DNA from: an uncultured Sphingomonas sp.
GTDB taxonomy: Bacteria > Pseudomonadota > Alphaproteobacteria > Sphingomonadales > Sphingomonadaceae
NCBI RefSeq assembly: GCF_913777325.1
Contig: NZ_CAJYSA010000064.1
DNA length: 64,000 nucleotides
Strand: one strand, 5' to 3'
The notes beneath the pieces are model-generated. The model searched no databases and was not told where the DNA came from. It was given only the letters and a program-made list of their open reading frames with translations. Below are positions 1 through 41,290 of this stretch, one piece after another; position 1 is the first letter of the stretch, and every line of letters starts with the position of its first letter. A program made the position numbers and the translations under genes.

Positions 1-2544
1 CTCACCGATCTCAAATTGTGCCGGTGCCATCATGGTCATCGTCTGAAGCACCGGCTGACCGATGTAGGCGTTTGAGCCCTTCGCAGTCTTATGGGTGGTG
101 GTGTTGCTGACGCCCTTGGCGCGATTGGAGATCGCGAGCAGCGGGCGGGTGTTCGTCGCCGCGAAAGTGGCTTGTTCGTCAGCCACTACCTTGGCGAGCT
201 TGTCCCCGGTCAGACGATCATGGATCGTGGTTCTGACAGAATCCTTCGGTAGGAGTGGGGTGTCGAGTTCGATCACCTCCCATGGGTCACCGATGAACCG
301 GGCTAGATGCGTGGGGACGGCTTCGGTGGTCAGGACGATTGTGGTGCGTGCGGTCTTGAACCAATCGGCTTTCTTGATCGACCAACCAGCGCCGCCGGTG
401 GCTGCGTAGATGTCATCCTCGCGAGGGTCACCATATTCGCCGGAGTAGGCGGTGGTGAGATCGTGGTCCCAGTGGTTGATGGCCACAAGCTTACACGCAT
501 CCTCATAGGAGATCGGCGCTTTTGCCGTTCGTGACAGGGCGTTGTAGCTGTTCCATCGATCAAGCAGCGATGCAGTTGATGATGTCCACACAGAGCCGTC
601 AGCGCGTAACTGATCGATCCAAGCGCGGGTCGTGGCTGGCACCATCGCGATCAGGTCGGTGGTCGCCACCTCATCGTGGATCAGGATACCGAGGTGAGTG
701 TCTTCCCGGCAGCGATTGAACGTGTTCGCCTGATTGTGTGACCAGAAAGCGGCGGAGAATAGGCGGCGGGTATAGGTGTTCTTATGCCAGTCGTGCGCAA
801 CGTCGTGGACCGTGAAGATGACCGGGGTAGCGCCGGTGACGGTTAGCAGGTGTCGCTTATGTCGAAAGTAGCGGTGAATTTCCGCCATCACGGTTGGCTG
901 ATCGTTCTGGATCGCTTCGTAGAGTGAATTGTAGCCCTTCTGGACGGCATCGCCGATAGTGAGTGGCGTGACCGTCAACGCGGCGCAAGCCTCTCTGTAG
1001 ACGGCTGAAAACGATTTTAGCACGATGGCCTTGATCGGGGTGCGCGAGTGCTGGTTCTTGAGTGTCAGCCGGTATTCGGCGCACTTCTCACGCGCCAGAT
1101 CGTAGGTCGCGAACGCATACATCGTCGCGGCGGGAAGACCGAAGTCGGATAGTTCGTTGATCGCCGCAGCGGTGGCGTTGAACAGACTGCGGCTCTTGCT
1201 GATACCTTCGGGAGCAGTGATCCAGAAATTGCCAGCACGTCCGATGCGATCCCGCAGGATGTCGCCGATGGCGGTGATCGCGGTCGCATGGTCGGTGGCC
1301 TTGTCGGCAAACGCTTGCTCATCGCTGGTGCGCGTCCGGTCGGTGACCATCAGCGTGTCATAGTCTGCGGTCCATTCTTCGATCATCTCTGCAAGGGTTC
1401 GGGGCAGGGACCGGTCATTGTCAGCAAGGTCAGCGTCCGTGCCAACGAGGAAGACTTTGCTGTAGTCCTGCTTGATCAGGCTGTCCGGTGTCAGGTCGGT
1501 CGGCGAGTTGCTGAAATACGCGGCAATCTGCCCCTGATTTTCGCCATAGTGGGAAAATTGCGGGTAGCTGCCATCCGGATAGTAGAGCTTGATCGAACGC
1601 GTGAGGTGCTTGAGCAGCGGTGAGTCCGACAGGATCGAACCCGGTGAGGCGAGGTTGACCTTGCGACGCTTTGCCAGCGGGACAACCGCAATCATGAAAT
1701 CAGGCGGGTCGAAGATTGATTGGCTGGCGCAACCCTTCGCAGACCGGTCATAGATGGCTTCCCATAGGACGCACTGCGGGATCAACGCGCCCTTCGGCAC
1801 ACCGAACAGGTGATCGTCCTTGTCATTGACGCGCAAGCCCAATGGGATGCGGCGGAAACTGTCAGGGAAGCGGATCGAAGCGTCAGGCTTGATCGCCGGG
1901 GGGATGTTCAGGATCGCCGATTGCTGGATGATCGGAAGAAGGCGCTGCCACGCTTGGATCAGGCCATTGCGAGGTGAGGTGAACGGAGCGTGCGCCGAGA
2001 TATCAGCGGTGGCGAACACGAAATGTAAGTGGAGGCTCTTGCCACCGCTGTAGGTGACGTTCAGGCCGCGACAGTCAGCGAAGCGCGCACGCACATCGGC
2101 GAGGAAGCGCCCAATCGGGGCGTCGCTGGGCTTCTTCACGCAGCGGAGCCACTCTAGCTGGTGCTGGAAGAACGCGATGTCGGTGCTGTCGAATTCGAAC
2201 GTCAGGATGGCGTGTTGACCGAGGATCACGCGTTCGCTCGGGCGGCGGTAAAGCGGATCGTCTTCGGCGACGTTCATCAGTGGATTTGTGAAAAACTGGA
2301 AGACGCTGAAGTCGTCGTCGTTGGTTTTCAGAGAAAGTTCGTGCGAGTAACGTCCACCACGCGATCTCTGCTTATCTTCGCTCAAGCTCACATAGCTGTC
2401 GCTGTTGTAGAGCATCGGGCGGATGATATCGGTGATGAGCGCGCAGGATGTTGCGTTCGCTGACTTAAGCTGGTTGACTTCGCGCTGCGTTAGCTTCGAG
2501 GCGTAGGTGTCGAAAACGCGGAATGATTCTGTGTATTGTGTCAT
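1..2544 (-). CDS. Replication protein, 3' end cut by the window edge. An N-terminal primase-polymerase (AEP-like) domain is fused to a P-loop NTPase/helicase-like domain.
   Basis: This gene is absent from the supplied ORF track because it has no stop inside the window. Hand translation of the minus strand from the ATG at 2544..2542 (MTQYTESFRVFDTYASKL...) stays open for 848 codons to position 1. An AAGGA lies just upstream. FEFDSTD, SGGKSLHLHFVF and RRIPLGLRVND resemble Prim-Pol motifs I-III. APEGISKS is a deviant Walker A and LGILIHDEV is a Walker B. Confidence 0.6.
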   Translation of the reverse strand, partial: MTQYTESFRVFDTYASKLTQREVNQLKSANATSCALITDIIRPMLYNSDSYVSLSEDKQRSRGGRYSHELSLKTNDDDFSVFQFFTNPLMNVAEDDPLYRRPSERVILGQHAILTFEFDSTDIAFFQHQLEWLRCVKKPSDAPIGRFLADVRARFADCRGLNVTYSGGKSLHLHFVFATADISAHAPFTSPRNGLIQAWQRLLPIIQQSAILNIPPAIKPDASIRFPDSFRRIPLGLRVNDKDDHLFGVPKGALIPQCVLWEAIYDRSAKGCASQSIFDPPDFMIAVVPLAKRRKVNLASPGSILSDSPLLKHLTRSIKLYYPDGSYPQFSHYGENQGQIAAYFSNSPTDLTPDSLIKQDYSKVFLVGTDADLADNDRSLPRTLAEMIEEWTADYDTLMVTDRTRTSDEQAFADKATDHATAITAIGDILRDRIGRAGNFWITAPEGISKSRSLFNATAAAINELSDFGLPAATMYAFATYDLAREKCAEYRLTLKNQHSRTPIKAIVLKSFSAVYREACAALTVTPLTIGDAVQKGYNSLYEAIQNDQPTVMAEIHRYFRHKRHLLTVTGATPVIFTVHDVAHDWHKNTYTRRLFSAAFWSHNQANTFNRCREDTHLGILIHDEVATTDLIAMVPATTRAWIDQLRADGSVWTSSTASLLDRWNSYNALSRTAKAPISYEDACKLVAINHWDHDLTTAYSGEYGDPREDDIYAATGGAGWSIKKADWFKTARTTIVLTTEAVPTHLARFIGDPWEVIELDTPLLPKDSVRTTIHDRLTGDKLAKVVADEQATFAATNTRPLLAISNRAKGVSNTTTHKTAKGSNAYIGQPVLQTMTMMAPAQFEIGE

Positions 2545-2658
2545 GGGTCCTTATGTATGGTCCTTGGGGTGATCGTGGCGGGATGATAGAAGGACCAAAT
2601 ATCACCTCGGCTCATGACTTCCGAAGCTTCCCGCCACTGATATCTATTTATACGCTAC

Positions 2659-2855
2659 CCCGCGCTCCGCGCGCAATATTCACGTGCTGGAGAGGCGTAG
2701 GTTTTCCCCCAATAAGCGTAGGTCCTTATATTAATATTAGGAACTACATCTATCGGGGGAAAAGAACTTTACATATGTCTGATGTCTCTACCTCTATCTA
2801 TACCCACGTTGATCGGTAGATAGCGCGAGCCGCAGGCGAGCGCGGTTGGCGCAAA
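2659..2855. repeat. Direct repeat copy A (~200 bp), a structured element upstream of the rep gene
   Basis: The first ~105 nt are near-identical to 3770..3972, and the last ~75 nt are about 85-90 percent identical by eye. It contains GCGTAGGT twice, 21 bp apart (2695, 2716). An outer 9 bp stem pairs TTTTCCCCC (2702-2710) with GGGGGAAAA (2755-2763). An inner 26 nt AT-rich near-palindrome at 2720-2745 has the perfect core ATATTAATAT. Confidence 0.85.
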
Positions 2856-2929
2856 AATCAGTAATGCGCTTTACTGCCATTTGATTACTGGTTTAAACAG
2901 GGGGTTATTGTCGATCCCGAGGGCTTCGC

Positions 2930-3748
2930 GTGATAATTTACAAATATGTAGATGCGTGGACTTTGTTTGCTGTCATTGAGAGTGGGCGGCTGATGTTCAG
3001 CCATCCGGCGGATTTCAACGACCCCTTTGACCGACCACGTGTGCCGCGATCACAATACAAATTCACATATCAAAGTCTCTTAAACGACGAGACGATGACG
3101 CCGGAGAGGCAAGCCCAAGATGCTGATGAAGCGTGGGGGAGGTGTGCGGTCACGAGCTTCACACGCACGCCCGACAATGCGCTTATGTGGGCGCATTATG
3201 CTGACAAGCATCAGGGGGCGGTAATAGAGATCGACGCTGATGAATCAGGTTTGACGGATAGAAGCTTTCTTATACCTGCGCAATTTGGATCGGTCATCTA
3301 CATGAAGCGACCAGTTCCGGACGGACCAAAAGTCAAAGGCTTGTCTGCAATGTTGAGCAAGGCGATCACCAGCGGAGACGGACGCTTTGACATCGATAAC
3401 TATGCTGGTCTTCAGCGACTATTTTTGATGAAGGGCTTGTCGTGGGGGTATGAGGAAGAGGTTCGAGTCGTAAGCCAAGCGTTTCGATACAGTTGGCTTG
3501 ATAATGGCGAGGATATGGGCGGATATTGGAAAAGGATATCCAAGGCTGACGGTAAGCAGGGGTATGGATGGCGCTTCAAGCTGTCCGCTATTAAAAAAGT
3601 ATTCATCGGTCTTCGCTTTGGAGAGATCGGTAGGCTTCAAGCTCTGTCCGAAAACATTGGCTTTGGGATCATGTGTCCAGACACGACGCAGCGTAACGAC
3701 TATGAAGTTCATTTTAAGGAATATTCTTCATCAGAAATATCGCGCTGA
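2930..3748 (+). CDS. DUF2971-family protein (function unknown), an accessory gene
   Basis: This is a 272 aa ORF with a GTG start and GAGGG upstream. The N-terminus IYKYVDAWTLFAVIESGRLMFSHPADFNDPFD, then MWAHYADKHQGAVIEI and a later WGYEEEVRVV, match the DUF2971 pattern as I recall it. Confidence 0.7.
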   Translation: MIIYKYVDAWTLFAVIESGRLMFSHPADFNDPFDRPRVPRSQYKFTYQSLLNDETMTPERQAQDADEAWGRCAVTSFTRTPDNALMWAHYADKHQGAVIEIDADESGLTDRSFLIPAQFGSVIYMKRPVPDGPKVKGLSAMLSKAITSGDGRFDIDNYAGLQRLFLMKGLSWGYEEEVRVVSQAFRYSWLDNGEDMGGYWKRISKADGKQGYGWRFKLSAIKKVFIGLRFGEIGRLQALSENIGFGIMCPDTTQRNDYEVHFKEYSSSEISR

Positions 3749-3769
3749 CATGTTCAGTTGTCTGTGCCA

Positions 3770-3972
3770 CCCGCGCTCCGCGCGTCAATATTCACGTGCT
3801 GGAGAGGCGTAGGTTTTCTCCCAATAAGCGTAGGTCCTTATATTAATATTAGGAACTACATCTATCGGGGGAAACTTCGACTAGTTGTTGTAAGTCTGAT
3901 GTCTCTACCCCTATCCATCCCTACGTTGATCGGTCTATAGCGCGAGCCGCAGGCGAGCGCGGTCGGCGCAAA
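3770..3972. repeat. Direct repeat copy B of the 2659..2855 element
   Basis: The architecture matches copy A. The outer stem pairs TTTTCTCCC (3814-3822) with GGGGGAAA (3867-3874). The single C-to-T change is compatible with a G-U pair in a plus-strand RNA. The inner palindrome is at 3832-3857. Confidence 0.85.
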
Positions 3973-4112
3973 CGGGTCTAAATGACGGCTAGCGCAGGCC
4001 GTGAGGCGCAAAAACTTACAATCGGAGTTAGGCCACTCGAATGTATGTTAACACCGGGTTCACGGCGAGATAAGGACGAGTGGCGCACCTCCGTGCGCGC
4101 ACGGGGGTATCC

Positions 4113-4661
4113 ATGAAAAAGATTTTGCTTGCGCTGACATCGGTCGGCGCACTCGCATCGACGGCTGCGCCAGCATCGGCGGCGTTGATAGAAAAGAATT
4201 TCGTCGTGACCGGTCGAGATGCGTCTGGCCCTTTCTCCACCCTAAATTTCAACTTCAACATCGTTTTTGATAACTCCGGGGATATCGCCACGACCAAGAA
4301 CGGCTTGACCGTTTTCGAGACCCTTCCGGGTTACTCGTTGAGCTATGCTTACGAGGCAAGCTCTGACCTTCTTTCGGTTGGCACGTTCGTCGGAGTGAAC
4401 TCGATCACTCTGGACTCGACCAAGAATGATCTCGGCTTCTTTCTGAAGGCGGCATCTACCTCCGACACGTCAGTATTGGGTGGCATCGACTACACGGCGT
4501 CAACTCCTCCAAATTTCTTTAGTGCGAGGTCCGTGACCGTCGTCAGCACAGACTTGACCGCAGCAGTGCCCGAGCCCGGCACGTGGGCGCTGATGATTCT
4601 CGGCTTCGGTGCTGTCGGATACTCGATGCGTCGTAAGAAGGCTGTTGTGCGCTTCGCCTGA
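4113..4661 (+). CDS. PEP-CTERM-anchored secreted protein (exosortase substrate type)
   Basis: The ATG at 4113 follows GGGGG. The signal peptide is MKKILLALTSVGALASTAAPASA. The C-terminus VPEPGTWALMILGFGAVGYSMRRKK has the PEP motif, a hydrophobic helix and a basic tail. Confidence 0.75.
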   Translation: MKKILLALTSVGALASTAAPASAALIEKNFVVTGRDASGPFSTLNFNFNIVFDNSGDIATTKNGLTVFETLPGYSLSYAYEASSDLLSVGTFVGVNSITLDSTKNDLGFFLKAASTSDTSVLGGIDYTASTPPNFFSARSVTVVSTDLTAAVPEPGTWALMILGFGAVGYSMRRKKAVVRFA

Positions 4662-4686
4662 CATCATCGACCAACGTCGTTGTGAG

Positions 4687-4716
4687 AAGGCCGTGGGGGC
4701 AACCCTGCGGCCTTTT
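4687..4716 (+). terminator. Rho-independent terminator after the PEP-CTERM gene
   Basis: The stem pairs AAGGCCG (4687-4693) with CGGCCTT (4708-4714), around a G/C-rich loop, and runs into TTTT. Confidence 0.6.
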
Positions 4717-5143
4717 CGCTGTCTATCGGGTTCGATCCCTACATCACTGAAAATGCCGTCACACAAATCCGGTCTTGGCACCCCTGACGACCGATCCTGA
4801 CAAGCGGCCACTTCCACCAATCGTGGCGTCTGACAATCGATCCGCGTAGATTGTCAGTATGGAGCGATATCGAGACCTCGTGTGCCGCGATCTGGTCGCG
4901 CAAGCCCTTGTCCGAAAGGGTCACACCAACCGTGCGCTGATCGCGCTCTGGATTTTGCGGCCACGTTCTAGGTCTGGTTCGTTCGCCAAGCTCGTAGCTG
5001 TCACCGCACCGGCGCTGATTGCCCTTCACCGTGCGGGTCTGATCTAGCGCGCGCTATCGGGCGGAAAATACCCCCAAGAACCCCGTAAAACAATTCATAC
5101 AGAGCGTTTCCAGTAAAAGCTAAACGCTGATACGTCCGGGCGC

Positions 5144-5159
5144 TAAAACAATTGTTTTA
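5144..5159. promoter_or_regulatory. Perfect 16 bp palindrome TAAAACAATTGTTTTA, operator-like, about 50 bp upstream of the gene at 5210
   Basis: The sequence is exactly self-complementary. A related half-site, GTAAAACAATTC, is at 5085-5096. Confidence 0.5.
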
Positions 5160-5209
5160 CGCCTTCTCTGGCCGACCATCACCGCGAAGGTGACCGGCTA
5201 AATAACTTC

Positions 5210-7316
5210 ATGTTTGACAAGACCTTCAAAAGCCTTACTCGTGTCCGTGGTGAGGGCATTATCTTTAGTGTTCGCCCTGATCCTTCCATCGATCTGACCG
5301 GACGTGTTTACAACTTCACGATCTGGACAGCGATTGGAAAAGTCACCACCAACGTTGAATCGAAGGATGGTGAACTATCCAAGGACGAATCTGGTAACCC
5401 GGTCTTCCTGTGGAATTTCAAGGGTGAGCTTACCGAGCGTCTTTACCTGATCGAAGCGACGATCAACTGGTCACTCAATGATCGTCTTAACGACAAGATC
5501 GAATACATCCGTGGCGGGACGATCACTATCATTCCGGGACCATCTACCCTGACGATGGACAACGATGCTGGCGCTGAAGCTCGCTACATCGACCGCATTA
5601 CGATTAAGGAAAATCCCGAAGATCAGGACAATCCTGCCAACTACACGGTTGTCACCCTTCCTTGCACCGCCACCCCGGCTCCGGTCCCGGCTCCCGTCAA
5701 CAGCGTCGCCCCGGCGATCAGCGGCACCGCGCAGGTTGGCTCGGTCCTGACGGTCAGTAACGGATCATGGTCAGGTTCACCGACATCGTTCGCATATGTG
5801 TGGAATGTCGGCGGGACGACCGTCAGCGGCGCTACCAGCGCGGCTTACACCCCGGTCAGCGGCGACGTTGGAAAGACCGTCACCGCGACCGTCACAGCCG
5901 TCAACGCGGGCGGGTCCACAAGCGCTACGTCAGCGGCCACGTCAGCGGTTTCCCCGATGATCATAGCGGCTCCCTCGGCTTTCGCTTGGGATTTCACGAA
6001 CCACCCTCTGACGGTAAACAAGCAATCGAATAGCAAGTTCAGCGCGTCGCTCGATCCGAAGTCCAAGGTCAACGCCTCGATCTGGTCGTCAACAGTCGAG
6101 TATTGGGTCGTTGCTGGAAAGGATAATTCCGGCAATGGTCTTAGCGAGGCGACCGCTGTTGGTTCAATCGCCGCTGCGATTAAGAAGCTCAATGACAACA
6201 CGAGTGCTACAGCCGGTAGAATCCGCATCAAAAGCGGTGAGTATGGAATTTTCCACAGGCGTCAACGACGCCGGAAATTCGCTTGGCGGTGGGCTTGTCT
6301 ATCCCACGAAGCCAATCGCCTTCATCGGTTACGGGTCAACCAAGCCAATCACGGGACCGTGGCGGAAGGGTCTGGCGTTCACGCTGACCGGAAACGGGGG
6401 GGGCGTCTACACCGTAGCTCGCTCCAACGTCGGTCGTGTGCTCGACTACAGCACCACCGATGCGAATGGCGATTTCATTGAAATCCCGGCGCGTGTCGAT
6501 GAAGCTGCCGTTCGCGCCGCGACCAGTGGTTGGTTTGTCGATACGAGTGGCAATCTTCTAGTAAAGCGCGCCGATGGTGTTCAGCCAACGGATGCCAACA
6601 CCCGCGTTTACCTGAACGCCGCTGCGTTCGGTATCGGATCGAATAATGTCGATGTCTATGCCGAAAACATCGAAATCCATGGTGGTGATTCTGGTGTCAA
6701 CGCTCGCGTCGGTAATACGCGCAACGTTGTCTTGGTGGACATGGTATCGAAGTATGCCGGTTCGCAGCGCGCTGTCACTGCTGGGACGGCACGACCATCA
6801 CTCGGTGGAAATGCCTTCTCGTTTGCTGGTTTTGCTACCGGTTCATTCATTGGATTGTGGCGGTGCGTTGGTGCTCGTTCTGCACAAGACGCAATTTCAA
6901 GCACAAGTAATTCCGGCTCGCCCTTTTATGTGCTGACGGTTGATTGCGTCGGTCGAGATTGCGGCATGGATGGTCAGACATCTTGTAACGGCCTGACGCA
7001 GCACGTGAATGTCATCGGGATTGACCTGAATGGTGAATATCACCGGAACGCGGGTGGCAATCTTCGCAACATCGATTCCACGCAGATTTGGGCGCTAGGA
7101 ACCTACGCGCATGATGATCGTGGTGATGTGATCTTCGGTGGTCCGCTGAACCCTTGCGATTTTAACCTCGGTGGAACTGCCAAGGCGTGGTTCCAAGATG
7201 TTCGCGCAGCAAACTCGCAAATCTCTCTCGCCACGGATTCGAGCACGTCGGCGTATCTTCGCAATGCATCCTTGCCAAACACGAAAATACTGAATGGCGC
7301 GGTTGTGTCCTATTGA
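5210..7316 (+). pseudogene. Tail-spike/depolymerase-like gene interrupted by a +1 frameshift. It has an N-terminal anchor-like domain, an Ig-like repeat, and a predicted beta-helix (pectate-lyase-like) C-terminal part.
   Basis: The frame of 5210 reads sensibly up to ...ATAGRIRIKSGEYGI (~6250) and then becomes Arg-rich nonsense. The frame of 6111 reads as nonsense before ~6243 and then sensibly (FSTGVNDAGNSLGGGLVYPTK...NIEIHGGDSGVNARVGN...) to 7316. The switch occurs at the T4 tract 6249-6252, and one extra T would restore a single ~700 aa ORF. Confidence 0.6.
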
Positions 7317-7324
7317 GGAGCATC

Positions 7325-7693
7325 ATGCCCGACAAACCGCCCGTATTCGGGCGAACGAAGCCCGTCCAGCGCATAGGCGGGTCTTCTACGCTCCCTGACA
7401 GGTCAGCGGCCTATAAACGGCTGTGTGGGGCTCTAATCGCCTCTGATCCGCTATGCCGGTATTGCTTCAATCAGCGTCGTCTCACCCCGGCTACGCTGTG
7501 CGATCACCGGATAGCGCTCGCGCTCGGTGGCACCAACGATCCTGACAATCTGGTGCCAGCCTGCCGCCAATGTAACTCCGACAAGGCCACCGCAGAACAG
7601 CGCTTCTTGCGCCGGGGATACAGCATCCGGGACATAATGTTGGATCACGATCTTTCATCGTGGATCAAGCTCGCGGAGAAGCGCGCCGAATAA
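7325..7693 (+). CDS. HNH endonuclease (phage packaging-associated type)
   Basis: The ATG at 7325 follows GAGGAG. CRYCFNQRRLTPATLCDHRIALALGGTNDPDNLVPACRQCNSDK contains the Cys pairs and the H-N-N/H core. Confidence 0.8.
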   Translation: MPDKPPVFGRTKPVQRIGGSSTLPDRSAAYKRLCGALIASDPLCRYCFNQRRLTPATLCDHRIALALGGTNDPDNLVPACRQCNSDKATAEQRFLRRGYSIRDIMLDHDLSSWIKLAEKRAE

Positions 7694-7701
7694 ATACGGC
7701 T

Positions 7702-10248
7702 ATGGCCTTGTCGATCACAAACAATCTATCTTTGATGAAGCTCGCTGCTGGCGAGGGTATCATCATGTCCTACCAGCCAACCGATCTTGATGATGTTCCG
7801 GAAAGTCTTGCCAATAGGCAATTCTACTGGGTGGCATTCACTGTCGTTAATGGCATTGTAGAAACCCGCCACCAAGAGCCGGGCAAGAACGTTATCACCC
7901 CCGAAGGACCGGTGTCTTTGTGGCAGATGACTGGTAAGGTTTCGCAGAAACTATACAATATTCCGGGATTGCTGTATGGATTTGCTGAAGCTGAAAATGA
8001 TACGATTGATATCTTTGTTACGGGCACGCTGACGATCAATCCGGCTCCCCGCACGATACCGGACAACAACTTCGTTCCGGTCGGAAAATACATTTGGCGC
8101 ATCAAGCGCAAGAATGACCCGGCGACCGCAGCCGCACCGATTTTCAACGTCAGTCCGTATTTTCATACGCTGACGGGCTTGATCCCGGTCAAGGACGCCC
8201 CGGTCAACACCCTAGCGCCGGTCATCAGCGGCACCGCTCAAGCTGGCCAGACGCTCACTGTGTCGGAAGGCGCATGGGACTACAATCCGGAGACTTTCAC
8301 CTATGAGTGGGAGGCAGATGGCGTCACCATCGATGGTGCCACCGCTTCAGCGCTGACCCTGACCACCGCACTTGTCGGCAAGGTCATCACCGCCACCGTC
8401 ACCGCGATCAATGAGGGCGGCAAGGCGTCTGTCACAACGACCGCTACTGCGGCTGTCCTGTCACCGCCCTTGAACAAGCCGACCGTGATCACCCTACCGG
8501 CGATCAGCGGCACGCCTAGCGTGGGCGAAATCCTGACTTCGACCACTGGCACATGGACCTTCGCACCCACGAGTTTCACGCGCCAGTGGCGCAGAGACGG
8601 TGCGGCGATCACTGGCGCTACCAGCGCGACCTACACCATCGTTTCGGGCGATCTTGGTAAGGCGATCTCGGTCAGCGTCACCGCGACCAACGCTGATGGC
8701 TCTGGCAGCGCGACATCCGACCTGATCGGCCCGGTGACTGGTGTCCCGGTCGATGGCCTCGACAACACCATGCCGGTCCCGACCATGACGTTGGCCAGTG
8801 CCAAGGGCACGTTCCCGCCATCGTTCGATATCGAGATTCCGGTTCAGGCGCAGGCTGACAACATCAAGTTCAAAATCGAGCGCTATGCCCTGTCAGCGCT
8901 TAACACCGTGGCATCGACCTACACGGGCACGATCACCGACGCACAGGCGAACGCCAACGCGGTCACGGGGCTGTTTTCCGGGATCACGGCTCCGAGCAGC
9001 TACCGGATGCGCCTTGAGACGCTTGACGGTCAGCGCTGGGGCAATTGGAGCAACTCGGTCATTCATGGCGACGTTGACGCCCCGGCGATCACCACAGCTA
9101 GCGTGAGCATCAAGGAAGGCGTTAAGCTGGCGCTAGCCCTGACGGTCAGCAACGAGCCCGCTGGCGTCACATGGGCGATCAGCGGCACCGATGCGGCGCT
9201 CTTCGAGATCACCGGCACAACCGTTCGCATCCTCAACGATGGCGTGTTCGACTTTGAGCTACCCACCGATGGCAACAAGGACAACGTTTACGAGATCACG
9301 CTTTCGGCGACCGATCTGGCGGGCAATGTTGGCACCAAGAATGTCACAGTGTCGATCACCGACGCTGATGAGATCGTTGATGCGTTCACGTTCGCTAAGC
9401 AGTCCAACGCCACAGTCAACACCGATTACACACGCACGATGACCGTGAGCGGATTGGAAGCCGGTTATTCGGTTCCAATCTCCGTCAGCGGTGGCCTTCG
9501 CTATTCTGTCAACGGTGGATCAACTGGCACGACTGCCGGAACCGTGAAGAACGGTGACGTAGTGACCGTGACGATGAAGTCTTCTGGCACCGGCGCATTC
9601 ACCGTCAGTGGCACGCTTAACATCGGTGGAGTCACAGGTTCGTTCGCGGTTCAGACCGTCATCGGATCAACTCCGGCAATTGCCTCGGCTTCGTTCTTCC
9701 CGACCACGCAGCTTCAATACACGAAAGAGATCAGTCTTGATTTCGGTGTTGGAACCGGGTTCTTCTTCGTATCAACGAACAACGCGGCAACCAACTTCAA
9801 GATCGATGGCGTCAGCGTAACGTCGTTGCTGCCCACGGGTTATTCCTACCTGTTCTGTTTTGACAGCACGACCGCTGGCACGAAGAAGCTGACGTTTGAT
9901 TTGTCAGGCTTCTGGAACGCGTCCGCCGCTGGCATCACAGTCGCTAATGTGTCGATGGATTCGCCATCAGTGGTTGCAACACCGAATAAATATTACAACA
10001 TTCCGTTTAACATCACAGCGCCTGTAATTCCAGCAGACGGTATTGGCCTAGTAATCTTGCTCTCAAGCAAAAAGCTGTCCTCAACCACCGCCCGGAACAA
10101 TCTGATTGTTGACCAACTATACAACGACCCGTCTGCGACCGGCACAAATTACATGGTTGGCACAATGGCAGGCGCAGGTAACGCCACATTCGGTAGCGAA
10201 AACGGCATCTATGAAGCCGTGACAATCGGCCTTGCGAAGAAAGTATAA
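7702..10248 (+). CDS. Large multi-domain adhesin or receptor-binding-like protein: an N-terminal domain paralogous to the 5210 gene, Ig-like repeats and a cadherin-like repeat
   Basis: The start at 7702 is chosen by the TAAATA-N5-ATG motif. Two ~90 aa repeats are PVISGTAQAGQTLTVSEGAW...VTAINEGG and PAISGTPSVGEILTSTTGTW...VTATNADG. The cadherin-like segment is ...DNVYEITLSATDLAGNVGTKNVTVSITDADE. Confidence 0.7.
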   Translation: MALSITNNLSLMKLAAGEGIIMSYQPTDLDDVPESLANRQFYWVAFTVVNGIVETRHQEPGKNVITPEGPVSLWQMTGKVSQKLYNIPGLLYGFAEAENDTIDIFVTGTLTINPAPRTIPDNNFVPVGKYIWRIKRKNDPATAAAPIFNVSPYFHTLTGLIPVKDAPVNTLAPVISGTAQAGQTLTVSEGAWDYNPETFTYEWEADGVTIDGATASALTLTTALVGKVITATVTAINEGGKASVTTTATAAVLSPPLNKPTVITLPAISGTPSVGEILTSTTGTWTFAPTSFTRQWRRDGAAITGATSATYTIVSGDLGKAISVSVTATNADGSGSATSDLIGPVTGVPVDGLDNTMPVPTMTLASAKGTFPPSFDIEIPVQAQADNIKFKIERYALSALNTVASTYTGTITDAQANANAVTGLFSGITAPSSYRMRLETLDGQRWGNWSNSVIHGDVDAPAITTASVSIKEGVKLALALTVSNEPAGVTWAISGTDAALFEITGTTVRILNDGVFDFELPTDGNKDNVYEITLSATDLAGNVGTKNVTVSITDADEIVDAFTFAKQSNATVNTDYTRTMTVSGLEAGYSVPISVSGGLRYSVNGGSTGTTAGTVKNGDVVTVTMKSSGTGAFTVSGTLNIGGVTGSFAVQTVIGSTPAIASASFFPTTQLQYTKEISLDFGVGTGFFFVSTNNAATNFKIDGVSVTSLLPTGYSYLFCFDSTTAGTKKLTFDLSGFWNASAAGITVANVSMDSPSVVATPNKYYNIPFNITAPVIPADGIGLVILLSSKKLSSTTARNNLIVDQLYNDPSATGTNYMVGTMAGAGNATFGSENGIYEAVTIGLAKKV

Positions 10249-10256
10249 GGAGTAAA

Positions 10257-12452
10257 ATGCGCGATAAGAATGGTAAAATCCTAGGTGAGCTAAAGGCTGA
10301 TCAAGTTGGCCCTTATGGTGGCGGGTTTGTAACGAGTTTCTCGATTACCGATGACGCAAAGGTGATGGTTCATGGCACGGACGTAGGCGGCGGCTACGTC
10401 TGGGGCGAAAATGACAAACTATGGCGTCACGTTGTCACCTACGAAAGCTACCCCGATCTAGATGCTTTGAAAGACCCGAACAGCTATGCTGACAGCGATG
10501 GTTGTTACGCGATTGATATTGCTCCGACCAACGGGCAGATCGGATATTGCGTTTTCAGAGGAAGACTGTTCAAGACAACCGATCAGTTCAAGAGCGTCCA
10601 GCTAGTGCCGGGTGGCTACTTCGGTTCACGTTCAAATACCGGTGGCCAGCGCTTGTGGAATGACAAGCTGAAGATCGACCCGGTTGACCCGAAGACCTTC
10701 ATGGTAGGCTCGGAAGGGCAGGGGGTATACTATTCAATCGATGGCGGTGCGACGCTCGTCCGCGTCGCTGGCATCCCGGCTGTCACCCTGACCGATTCGA
10801 ATTATCCGCTACCCATAACCGTTGCGGTAGATCGCACCAGCGATACCGTGAACGGTCGTAAGCAGCATTGGGTGATGTGGGTTCCCGGCTCTGGTCTTTG
10901 GGAGACTACATCGGGTCCGGAAGGAACATGGACCAAGAGCGTCGGATCACCAGCGATTAACATTGCATACCAAATGTCCATTGATCACGCTGGCAATATA
11001 CTCATTGCTGGTGGACCAAACGGCATCTACCAGCGCACTAACGGAACGTGGACGAAGGTGAGTGCTTTTGGTGCGGCGGCTTCTGCCGTGCTGAAGAACA
11101 ATCAGCAAGTGTCTATGGGCTTTAATGGTGACATGAATTTCACCACAGCCGCACTGCCGAATGCTTGGACATCCGACCGGTGGTATCCTCATTATCCACT
11201 TCGTGGTGGTATTCAGTATAAGGCTGACAAGGTTCGGTGGCTGAACAGTGGTCAAAGCCAACTATTCCCGTCCAAGCTGATGCCCGATCCGATCACACCC
11301 AACAAGGTGTGGCTTGTTCACGGCACGGGTATAGCATGGTCTTATGGTCCTAACGGCACTGACCCTATCATCTGGAATGACGTGTCGATTGGCAACGGTA
11401 TGTTGGTGACGAACCGCACCATCATGACACCGGATGGAAACCTATTGCGAGCCGCTTGGGATCAGCCAATTTGGACGGGGAAGACTGACGAAGAGATCGA
11501 CAATCCCCTTGATCATTCAATCTCGGAAGCCTTCAGCCATGGCTGGGATATCGACTGGGTTCCGGGCAAGCCGAACATTGTGGTGGCATGTGTCAACTAT
11601 CAGGCGGAATTCTCCGGTATGTCAACGGACGGTGGAAAGAATTTCACCACCATGTTCCGGCATCCTAACGGCGCTACGCTAGGTGGTAACATTGGGTTCG
11701 TTAGTGAGACTGAAGGATATTGGATACCGGCTAACAATGGTAAGGCGGTTTACACTACCGATGGTGGTCAGAATTGGTCGCTCTTGGAGCTTACTGCAAA
11801 GGATGGTTCGACCTTACCCTCTGGTGGTAGTCAGGGATGGAACTTCGCCTACTATGTCAACAAGAAGAACCTGTTGATCTCGAAGGAAGAGCCGGGCGTG
11901 GCCTACTTGTATAACAACGGTTCAGGTGGATCAGGATTAGCTGGCGTTTGGCGGAAGGAAGCTGGCAGCACGACCTTCAATCAGGTGTTCGCTGGCACGA
12001 TTGGTCGAACGGGTTGGTTTGATTGGTATATGCGACTGTATGAAGTGCCGGGTATGCCGGGAGCGCTGATCCTGTCACCGGGCAATCTGGCCGACAAGCC
12101 AACAGTCATGCGCAGTGCCGATGCTGGTAAGACATGGACCACAGCCAAGACCACACTGAACGGTGTTGAGTATGAAATCGTAAACTGTGAAGATATGGGC
12201 TGGGGAAAGGCAGCGCCGGGGTCACCCTACGCTACTTGCCGCTTCGCCGGTTACATCAACAATGTCTATGGTATCTATGAATCATTCGACAATCTGAAGA
12301 CTGTCACTCGTGTCGGTGGTCACCCGGCTGGCATGACCTACGGACTGACCGGCATCGCGGGACATCCGACCCGTTTTGGTGAGTGGTATTATGGTGTTGG
12401 TCAGATGTCTTGGGCGAAGGCTACGCGGAGGCACGTGCTTCGGTTCAGCTAA
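10257..12452 (+). CDS. BNR/Asp-box beta-propeller protein (sialidase or glycoside-hydrolase-like fold)
   Basis: AAGGAG lies upstream of the ATG. Four Asp-box-like motifs are present: SIDGGATL, STDGGKNF, TTDGGQNW and SADAGKTW. Confidence 0.7.
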   Translation: MRDKNGKILGELKADQVGPYGGGFVTSFSITDDAKVMVHGTDVGGGYVWGENDKLWRHVVTYESYPDLDALKDPNSYADSDGCYAIDIAPTNGQIGYCVFRGRLFKTTDQFKSVQLVPGGYFGSRSNTGGQRLWNDKLKIDPVDPKTFMVGSEGQGVYYSIDGGATLVRVAGIPAVTLTDSNYPLPITVAVDRTSDTVNGRKQHWVMWVPGSGLWETTSGPEGTWTKSVGSPAINIAYQMSIDHAGNILIAGGPNGIYQRTNGTWTKVSAFGAAASAVLKNNQQVSMGFNGDMNFTTAALPNAWTSDRWYPHYPLRGGIQYKADKVRWLNSGQSQLFPSKLMPDPITPNKVWLVHGTGIAWSYGPNGTDPIIWNDVSIGNGMLVTNRTIMTPDGNLLRAAWDQPIWTGKTDEEIDNPLDHSISEAFSHGWDIDWVPGKPNIVVACVNYQAEFSGMSTDGGKNFTTMFRHPNGATLGGNIGFVSETEGYWIPANNGKAVYTTDGGQNWSLLELTAKDGSTLPSGGSQGWNFAYYVNKKNLLISKEEPGVAYLYNNGSGGSGLAGVWRKEAGSTTFNQVFAGTIGRTGWFDWYMRLYEVPGMPGALILSPGNLADKPTVMRSADAGKTWTTAKTTLNGVEYEIVNCEDMGWGKAAPGSPYATCRFAGYINNVYGIYESFDNLKTVTRVGGHPAGMTYGLTGIAGHPTRFGEWYYGVGQMSWAKATRRHVLRFS

Positions 12453-41213: not shown

Positions 41214-41290
<77 letters not shown>

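Follow-up and report, generated by a model that had tools for sequence, protein, structure and literature searches.

The origin of the Sulfolobus plasmid pRN1 is a stem-loop of about 100 nucleotides (nt) beside a gene for a primase-polymerase (prim-pol)/helicase, with a structure that is conserved and a sequence that is not, and the same arrangement has been proposed for Bordetella phage BIP-1 (PMC4234260). In plasmid RSF1010, the primase RepB' starts on two hairpins, ssiA and ssiB, which lie on opposite strands (PMC8567376). The ssiA hairpin contains a CCGAAGG mini-hairpin, and G-N-A triloops closed by a C-G pair are a stability motif of DNA (PMC13037366). We analyzed a unit of about 200 bp that occurs twice in a 64,000-nt stretch of DNA from an uncultured Sphingomonas sp. 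(contig NZ_CAJYSA010000064.1), referred to below as the window. The two copies lie next to a prophage gene for a probable replication protein, here called rep, and a gene of the DUF2971 family stands between them. The unit is most economically read as a cis-acting DNA module of the phage replication gene. More specifically, we favor, at about even probability, the reading that it is a putative replication origin or primase-helicase loading module that has been duplicated.

The repeat unit and its conservation

Two direct repeats of about 200 bp had been described in the initial annotation of the window, and both were found where it had placed them. The parts of the unit and the genes on either side of copy A are as follows.

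1-2544, minus strand: rep gene, the 5' 847 codons of a protein of ~950 amino acids (aa), with its ATG at 2544-2542; it exits the window at the left end
2645-2676, minus strand: rep promoter-like region, with a -10-like box TATAAATA at 2645-2652 outside the repeat and a -35-like box TTGCGC at 2671-2676 inside copy A
2659-2855, no strand given: repeat copy A, a complete module next to rep
2661-2673, minus strand: small hairpin of the short side, CGCGC-GGA-GCGCG, whose G-N-A loop is on the rep-sense strand; it lies 28 nt away from the palindrome
2702-2763, no strand given: imperfect palindrome of 62 bp with an AT-rich center and a C5/G5 clamp; the arms are complementary at 25 of 31 positions
2825-2841, plus strand: long-side motif GCGAGCC-GCA-GGCGAGC, 61 nt from the palindrome
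2930-3748, plus strand: DUF2971 gene, an open reading frame (ORF) of 819 nt, 272 aa, GTG start
3770-3972, no strand given: repeat copy B, with the small hairpin at 3772-3784 (minus strand), the palindrome at 3814-3874 and the long-side motif at 3942-3958 (plus strand)

Copies A and B have the same orientation, and BLAST aligned them at 89% identity in 203 columns (E 4e-73); there is no third copy in the window. As had been noted, the first 104 to 105 nt differ at two places, one T inserted after 3784 and one C>T change, and the remainder is ~90% identical apart from an indel block of 4 to 8 nt. The GC content of the units is 0.43 to 0.47 versus ~0.58 nearby. The copies do bracket the DUF2971 ORF but not exactly, as gaps of 74 nt (copy A to the GTG) and 21 nt (stop codon to copy B) remain. 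The duplicated stretch begins just before one small hairpin and ends 14 nt beyond the other, and the duplicated unit is therefore the whole module. Its rep-side limit falls between the -35-like and -10-like boxes of rep, and thus copy B has neither the -10 box nor the rep leader; copy A overlaps the promoter-like region, which is followed by the leader, and copy B stands alone before the next cargo gene. The right end of copy A reads GCGCAAA, and at this point copy A, copy B, and the single unit of the closest relative, L001, split into different cargo, so that GCGCAAA marks the module boundary where cargo joins.

The region upstream of rep was read in 20 related loci (L numbers), and nearly all of them show the same order in the rep sense: palindrome, ATAT-GC motif, TATAAATA box, and a leader of ~100 nt. 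Homologues of the palindrome were found at 14 related loci, which range from 94% down to 35% in the identity of their Rep to that of the window and belong to phages of different morphotypes. In almost every homologue the palindrome is 60 to 75 bp long and lies 150 to 310 nt upstream of the rep start. In a set of 12 sequences from 11 lineages, 83% of the arm cells are paired, and compensatory double changes are seen in 15 of the 19 pairs; 0 of 500 shuffles reached these values (slid controls, 42 to 59%). The arms covary over ~25 bp with little conservation of sequence, which is limited to the C5/G5 clamp and an apical TCCTWA/TWAGGA. The AT-rich center of the window palindrome is CCTTATATTAATATTAGG, and an exact match to this core was not found in IMG/VR.

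Folding with DNA parameters gave equal values for the two strands of the copy A palindrome, -13.5 and -13.8 kcal/mol (z -4.1 and -4.8), and -9.0 kcal/mol versus -13.5 kcal/mol for copy B, which carries a mismatch. With RNA parameters, the minus strand folded better than the plus strand in copy A (-30.9 versus -24.8 kcal/mol) and in copy B (-23.2 versus -20.8 kcal/mol). The better-folding strand varies by lineage, and neither is favored across the 14 homologous palindromes. Together with a palindrome that is flipped in the metagenomic locus L024 (see below), this lack of preference indicates that either orientation is tolerated, as for a DNA element. The C>T change in copy B had been taken as a hint of RNA structure. 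It does leave a pair, G-U, on the plus strand alone, but the hairpin's other wobbles favor the minus strand; since RNA parameters favor the minus strand of copy A by 6 kcal/mol, a single plus-strand G-U pair is no evidence for a plus-strand RNA.

The two small hairpins occupy different strands of the DNA, and each one lies to the 3' side of the palindrome when its strand is read. The short-side hairpin is also present in L001 and in copy B. The long-side motif, reported earlier as a GCGAGC-N5-GCGAGC tail and present in both copies, could fold, on the plus strand only, into a hairpin that has tandem G.A pairs and a G-N-A triloop. Its pattern, G.GAGC(C)GNA(G)GCGAG, occurs eight times in 852 kb of strand-sequence, and seven of these occurrences are 200 to 370 nt upstream of a rep start (two each in the window and L009 and one each in L001, L007, and L022); the eighth is at 11945-11959 of L012, 6 kb downstream in that locus. 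In L009 the motif flanks the palindrome on both strands at ~31 and ~59 nt, compared with 28 and 61 nt in the window, and L001 reads CCGAAGG at the long-side position where the window reads CCGCAGG. Generic G-N-A hairpins with at least 4 Watson-Crick pairs are mildly enriched upstream of rep (0.32 versus ~0.1 per kb-strand), and a clear association with rep was seen only for the specific GCGAGC-GNA-GCGAGC motif. The significance of the small hairpins rests on this recurrence and on the published work on G-N-A mini-hairpins (PMC13037366).

Other elements named in the initial annotation were located as well, namely, an outer stem TTTTCCCCC/GGGGGAAAA, a core ATATTAATAT, and GCGTAGGT boxes at 2695/2716 and 3807/3828, 21 nt apart from start to start (2 window matches versus 0.03 expected). 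The boxes had been read as iterons. The first one is not conserved (L001 has GTGTGGGT and L024 has GTGTAAGT), and the second belongs to a palindrome arm; as the pair is not kept in the nearest relatives, the iteron reading was dropped. What stood of the proposed duplicated origin or operator, with iterons and an AT-rich element, is the duplicated piece of a control region beside the replication gene and the AT-rich center.

The protein to which the unit is linked belongs to a rare family, with 14 homologues in 5.8 billion sequences (14 clusters) and full-length members of 930 to 1,000 aa. Rep had no match in Pfam, PHROGs, NCBIfam, or PADLOC or, with single-sequence and profile queries, among PDB sequences. 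As a single sequence it found nothing in IMG/VR, where an alignment query led to 5 loci, and a scan of GTDB genomes returned only distant relatives in Brevundimonas/Caulobacteraceae. In an AlphaFold model of the full-length protein (predicted local distance difference test [pLDDT] score of 82.8), the C-terminal ~550 residues match superfamily 2 (SF2) helicases of the DinG/XPD/DEAD-box kind, with E values down to 9e-9. The N-terminal 400 residues contain invariant TFEFDSxD and YSGxKSxHxHF sequences of the archaeo-eukaryotic primase (AEP) type (hhhDxD and SGxKSxH), and their weak fold matches are mostly to herpesvirus primase, the LigD polymerase domain, PrimPol, and primase small subunits. The earlier label of Prim-Pol/helicase is thus borne out by the SF2 fold in its helicase part and, in its Prim-Pol part, by the motifs and weak AEP fold matches only; Rep is probably a primase-helicase replication initiator, as judged from these models. 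Its carriers are integrase-bearing prophages, HK97-like siphoviruses and a T7-like element that encodes an RNA polymerase of its own, and in each of them rep is the first gene of the early operon.

Comparison of relatives shows how the duplication is connected with the DUF2971 gene. L001, the closest relative (Rep 94% identical), has one unit that is A-like throughout, with a 13-nt deletion, followed by unrelated sequence and two PEP-CTERM genes; it has no DUF2971 gene. L024 is a 1,153-nt metagenomic contig that starts in one palindrome and ends in another, encodes a DUF2971 protein 90% identical to that of the window, and shares both cassette junctions with it, from which it follows that the unit-DUF2971-unit layout predates the ~12% nucleotide divergence between the two. 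The earlier proposal that the duplication was tied to the capture of DUF2971 is supported by both loci, and the relative that it suggested looking for, with one copy and no DUF2971, is L001, which has other cargo in its place.

The left half of L024 copy 2 differs from that of window copy B at ~10 of 52 positions, whereas the left halves of window copies A and B differ at 2, a pattern that marks gene conversion between A and B. In its tail, copy A is nearer to L024 copy 1 than to copy B. The palindrome core of L024 copy 2 is turned around with respect to the flank beside it (96% identity to the reverse complement and 82% forward). Because k-mers across this flank and the inverted arm are not the ones found in copy 1, we provisionally take the inversion to be real. 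The region was also partially duplicated on independent occasions, as a 29-nt arm repeat in L012 and as a second -10 box region in L006 and L022. We regard the flip and the homogenization within a genome as direct signs that these palindromes are recombinationally active. Excision of the DUF2971 gene by recombination between the repeats, as previously suggested, is plausible; the deletion product was not found in the available data.

Two further observations concern palindrome arms. The right arm of the IMG/VR contig L028, when reverse complemented, matches the left arm of the IMG/VR contig L029 without a difference, and of the two palindromes that of L029 is nearer to perfect, which suggests arm-to-arm conversion inside the palindrome. 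In L012 (Brevundimonas sp. NPDC058933), the 29-nt exact arm copy is repeated 91 nt downstream, beside the rep -35 region, and the arm copies stand 253 and 162 nt upstream of rep.

Proposed function and alternatives

We favor the origin reading because the unit accompanies a single protein family in phages that are otherwise unrelated and because it is constrained in structure rather than in sequence and tolerates either orientation, with an AT-rich center and strand-specific mini-hairpins on both sides. In such an origin, the primase-helicase-like protein would assemble at the module, open the DNA, and prime. The palindrome would function on either strand, as a hairpin or a cruciform, and the mini-hairpins at its sides would serve as signals for single-strand initiation. 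One nonhomologous join, in a common ancestor of this prophage and the L024 phage, would have set the foreign, lower-GC DUF2971 gene between two copies of the module; later, the palindrome-proximal halves of copies A and B would have been homogenized by gene conversion, and one L024 palindrome would have flipped.

Several observations weigh against this. The G-N-A motif occurs in only 5 of ~13 lineages, spacer lengths and the side of the motif differ among lineages, and a nearest-neighbor energy model shows no special stability or strand bias for the small hairpins. In L006, L007, L008, L012, and L022, the palindrome has A-run/T-run flanks like those of a bidirectional terminator. L030 keeps the leader, yet its upstream gene leaves no room for the palindrome, and therefore the element may be elsewhere or dispensable there. 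On the protein side, the N-terminal model has a pLDDT of 69 with weak AEP fold matches (Foldseek E 0.015 to 0.5), and the helicase is SF2-like, unlike the SF3 and SF4 helicases of known prim-pol replication proteins. The module also overlaps the rep promoter, so that its role may be purely transcriptional.

The transcriptional explanation would make the unit an operator/promoter whose palindrome binds a dimeric regulator, from phage or host, of the rep promoter and of a divergent promoter for the cargo and late genes, the duplication giving the DUF2971 and PEP-CTERM genes the same regulated promoter. It would account for a module that lies between divergent units and overlaps the rep -35 box and spacer with its left end, for -10-like hexamers on both strands of the AT-rich center, and for the apical TCCTWA/TWAGGA as the one sequence conserved within the palindrome; the joining of three different cargo modules at the right end of the unit is what one expects just downstream of a promoter. 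We consider it unlikely, however. In most relatives the palindrome is 60 to 130 nt from the -35 region and hence does not overlap the promoter, and a complementarity of ~25 bp per arm with freely changing sequence is unlike a protein half-site. A consensus scan for promoters and terminators detected no promoter-like site in either unit (its one weak terminator-like site, in copy B, is matched in number by shuffles), the tail of the unit is not conserved outside the group of the window, L001, and L024, and in L002 the upstream gene is codirectional with rep. Less likely still is that only copy A matters and copy B is a functionless by-product of the DUF2971 rearrangement that is kept alike by gene conversion. 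Copy B does lack the -10 box and leader, its mismatched palindrome is the weaker one as DNA, fragile, recombinogenic long palindromes would explain the build-up of cargo, and the region was partially duplicated independently in L012, L006, and L022. Both copies, however, keep the whole module through the ~12% divergence between the window and L024, the palindrome of copy B has only one change, and such a by-product would be compatible with the origin reading for copy A.

We consider it very unlikely that the palindrome works as RNA, whether as a transcript hairpin (an RNase III site, a stabilizer, or a bidirectional terminator or insulator) or as a small-RNA gene present twice, the latter having been proposed in the initial annotation. 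The hairpins are very stable with RNA parameters (-21 to -48 kcal/mol), the five loci with A-run/T-run flanks have the form of a bidirectional intrinsic terminator, and the C>T change of copy B keeps its plus-strand G-U pair. In the window, L001, L004, L009, and L010, however, the order is T-run, stem, A-run, which leaves the stem without a following U-tract on either strand. Rfam was silent even at E 10: the only match in the window at the gathering score was a tRNA, and nothing relevant appeared at E ≤10 in 2400-4200. The changing better-folding strand and the flipped core of L024 likewise speak against an RNA, and C-G-closed G-N-A triloops are a stability motif of DNA (PMC13037366). The tail, where the indels between the copies and the 13-nt deletion of L001 fall, preserves no fold. 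The small-RNA proposal was set aside on these grounds.

A number of other identities were rejected. An intrinsic terminator does not fit the window stem, which has T4 before it and A4 after it on both strands. A miniature inverted-repeat transposable element or other small mobile element was dismissed because there are two copies in the window, the unit elsewhere occurs only upstream of rep or flanking the DUF2971 cassette of L024, and target-site duplications are absent at the flanks (TATACGCTAC/AATCAG and CTGTGCCA/CGGGTC). An integron attC site was dismissed because the palindrome is single and cassette-free beside rep in every relative, with no integron integrase among the neighboring genes. 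Coding DNA was rejected because the shared ORF-like frames (2523-2819 and 3758-3940) are interrupted by the L001 deletion and by indels whose lengths are not divisible by three. A tail stem TCTACC/GGTAGA is kept in copy A, L001, and L024 and broken in copy B, and a second -10-like box, TATAGATAG, which the copy A tail contains, is missing from copy B, L001, and L024. A telomere-resolution site is unlikely, as the palindrome is imperfect and the elements are integrated prophages that bear an integrase.

If the origin reading is correct, it defines a cis element for an unannotated family of phage replication proteins, one that occurs in both HK97-like and T7-like temperate phages of Alphaproteobacteria. 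The stem-loop/ssi-hairpin type of origin, so far seen in pRN1 and IncQ plasmids, would also be extended to a primase-like/SF2-helicase fusion. The flip and the homogenization suggest a route by which a defense gene is captured at a phage replication origin. It is a long shot that recombination between the repeats or initiation at both copies yields a self-amplifying circle or segment of ~1.1 kb, made of the DUF2971 gene and an origin, that replicates when the primase-helicase is made. In that case, the protein would be supplied by induction of the prophage or by a superinfecting related phage, and defense-gene dosage would be coupled to phage replication.

The rep leader RNA and neighboring genes

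Between the unit and the rep start codon lies a structured leader, with the following parts.

2542-2650, minus strand: rep 5' leader, structured; covariance model score of 90.3 bits, E 2e-18, the single match in the window
2629-2637 with 2575-2583, minus strand: stem P1, GUGGCGGGA/UCCCGCCAC
2621-2626 with 2605-2610, minus strand: stem P2, a hairpin with the loop AAGUCAUGAG at 2611-2620
2590-2597, minus strand: 5' arm of P3, UGGUCCUU, with the partners AAGGACCA at 2558-2565 or AAGGACC at 2546-2552

In every relative, TATAAATA or a near match stands 10 to 14 nt before P1, with the ATAT-GC motif ~20 nt further up, and from this we infer a rep promoter at 2645-2676, which the consensus scan did not flag; the leader would then start ~7 nt past TATAAATA, near 2638. 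In stems P1 and P2, 89.7% of the positions are paired and 11 of 15 pairs are compensatory, values reached in 0 of 500 shuffles (slid controls, 38 to 50%); their G-U pairs become A.C on the opposite strand. The loop of the P2 hairpin, AGUCAUGA, is conserved. The 5' arm of P3 lies inside P1, and two tandem complementary sites follow downstream of P1, the second overlapping the Shine-Dalgarno sequence. This P3 with two alternative 3' partners, in differing sequences, was seen in 11 of 11 lineages examined and also in L028 to L030; its arms were chosen by eye and by duplex folding, with modest shuffle z-scores (-0.3 to -4.2).

The covariance model, built from P1 and P2, yielded a single strong match (E < 1e-5) at each rep locus, immediately ahead of the start codon, and also found L028, L029, and L031, which were not in the seed (E 3e-8 to 8e-7). 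The only other match in 376 kb was a weak one in L006 (E 0.42, probably chance). The leader of L030 was missed at default filters, and its P1, P2, and two-partner P3 were seen by eye. No Rfam family matches the leader, and a pattern search returned one viral and two metagenome contigs only, near-duplicates of known lineages. The GGTCCTT boxes at 2546, 2559, and 2721 and AAGGACC at 2590 are where they had been reported. Three of the four turn out to be pseudoknot arms of the leader RNA and not operator boxes; the fourth, at 2721, is part of a palindrome arm, and its resemblance to the others is probably coincidental. The leader is a well-supported candidate for a new family of cis-regulatory RNA, and we infer that rep translation is controlled by the alternative pairing. 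The design would be simple, with one anti-Shine-Dalgarno-like arm and two competing partners.

Some details of single leaders are recorded here. The P2 loop AAGUCAUGAG contains a self-complementary UCAUGA, and in the window this loop (2611-2620) also complements CAUGAC at the rep start codon (2538-2547), a match that is not conserved in other lineages. L030 (IMG/VR_UViG_3300020156_000464), with a Rep 29% identical to that of the window, keeps the -10 box, and its upstream gene ends ~35 nt before this box.

The assignment of the gene between the repeats to DUF2971 was confirmed with Pfam PF11185 (E 2.3e-7, 32.5 bits against a cutoff of 22). The protein also matches the PADLOC candidate defense system PDC-S31 (E 1.5e-21) and phrog_1762, and the GC content of its gene is 0.48 to 0.55 versus 0.57 to 0.62 in rep. 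The DUF2971 family is ADP-ribosyltransferase-like and close to DarT and AbiGi (PMC12522546), and Aristaios, a tested single-gene anti-phage system of lactococcal plasmids, is a DUF2971 protein (PMC11381338). By its sequence, the window gene is a candidate for ADP-ribosyltransferase-like anti-phage defense cargo. More distant DUF2971 homologues lie in ordinary chromosomal contexts without the repeat unit. A BLAST search with 2545-4080 had no hit in GenBank phages, and in plasmids it hit only the DUF2971 coding part, at 70 to 78%.

The next cargo gene, downstream of copy B, is the following.

4113-4661, plus strand: PEP-CTERM protein gene, Pfam PF07589

Its 86% homologue, in L032, lies in another cargo region with adjoining Thoeris-like genes and no unit, and among the relatives none was found with a single unit directly before a window-type PEP-CTERM gene. 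The stretch to the right of the module is a cargo hotspot, and defense and counterdefense genes seem to collect beside rep modules. Tandem PEP-CTERM protein genes stand next to related rep modules in L001 (7957-9184) and L032. The Thoeris-like genes of L032 are ThsA-macro/ThsB-TIR (1797-3016 and 4169-5625 were noted for cargo), and L002 has an AcrVA2-like gene (8704-9540) directly upstream of rep.

Elsewhere in the window, large tail-fiber-like genes that carry immunoglobulin-like repeats, together with a BNR-repeat protein, occupy 5210-12452 (plus strand), upstream of the small terminase gene (13562). Two overlapping ORFs among them, 5210-6481 and 6111-7316 (plus strand), match positions 13 to 136 and 139 to 474 of the profile phrog_16653, "hydrolase," so that 5210-7316 looks like one tail-fiber/hydrolase gene split by a frameshift (a mutation, a programmed frameshift, or a sequencing error). 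An HNH endonuclease gene (listed at 7187-7693, plus strand) lies among the tail-fiber-like genes. For a prophage of the HK97-like kind, this arrangement upstream of the small terminase is unusual. A tRNA-Arg (CCG) at 41214-41290 (minus strand), ~10 kb past the last phage-like ORFs, is the one RNA gene that was found in the window.

Comparison with known systems

Iteron-type theta origins, such as lambda ori and those of many plasmids, need at least three conserved direct repeats that bind the initiator and stand at helical spacing, and the window has two GCGTAGGT boxes. Their AT-rich unwinding element next to the binding sites does have a counterpart in the window, the center CCTTATATTAATATTAGG. 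For the leader, the nearest parallel is the repZ and repA leaders of IncI-alpha and IncB plasmids, in which a pseudoknot controls the translation of a plasmid replication gene. As there, the leader of an initiator gene is structured, and long-range pairing near the ribosome-binding site could decide whether rep is translated. Unlike in these plasmids, the 5' partner is located in an internal loop, that of P1, and not in a hairpin loop, and there are two alternative 3' partners; neither a leader peptide nor an antisense RNA was found, no search having been aimed at them. The cargo resembles Aristaios and PDC-S31 in being a DUF2971 protein of similar size that is encoded alone on a mobile element and matches the PDC-S31 hidden Markov model, a likeness drawn from Pfam and PADLOC profiles only. 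A position between duplicated origin-like modules has not been described for Aristaios or for DarT/AbiGi-like systems.

With RSF1010 and other IncQ plasmids, the module may share two hairpin signals that lie inverted on opposite strands, here with the motif in five lineages and no energetic signal. In the plasmids, the primase of the replicon primes at these signals in a sequence-specific way. The G-N-A mini-hairpin is of the CCGAAGG type (exact in L001, CCGCAGG and CGGAG in the window), and an AEP-related primase is encoded by the replicon itself, with a weak AEP assignment in the case of Rep. RSF1010 uses three proteins, RepA, RepB', and RepC, and 20-bp iterons; the window has one fused protein and no conserved iterons. 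A large central palindrome between the two signals is not a feature of RSF1010, and there is no similarity to ssiA or ssiB beyond the mini-hairpin.

The origin of pRN1 has a tested function, and in origins of its type the stem-loop is required, and suffices, in cis for replication; for the module of the window, an origin function is predicted. The pRN1 stem-loop lies downstream of the replication gene, in contrast to the ~62-bp palindrome of the window, which is upstream and overlaps the promoter region. The pRN1 protein combines an AEP prim-pol, a helicase of the SF3 type, and a winged helix, unlike Rep, whose helicase is SF2-like (DinG/XPD) and whose AEP part is assigned from motifs and weak fold matches. 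Because of the SF2-like helicase and the lack of iterons, we describe the module as one that would work like the pRN1 and RSF1010 types and not as a member of either. The likeness to pRN1 lies in a single large replication protein with primase-polymerase-like and helicase domains, in a large stem-loop adjoining its gene that is conserved in structure (at 14 loci here) and not in sequence, and in a symmetry that suggests bidirectional initiation.

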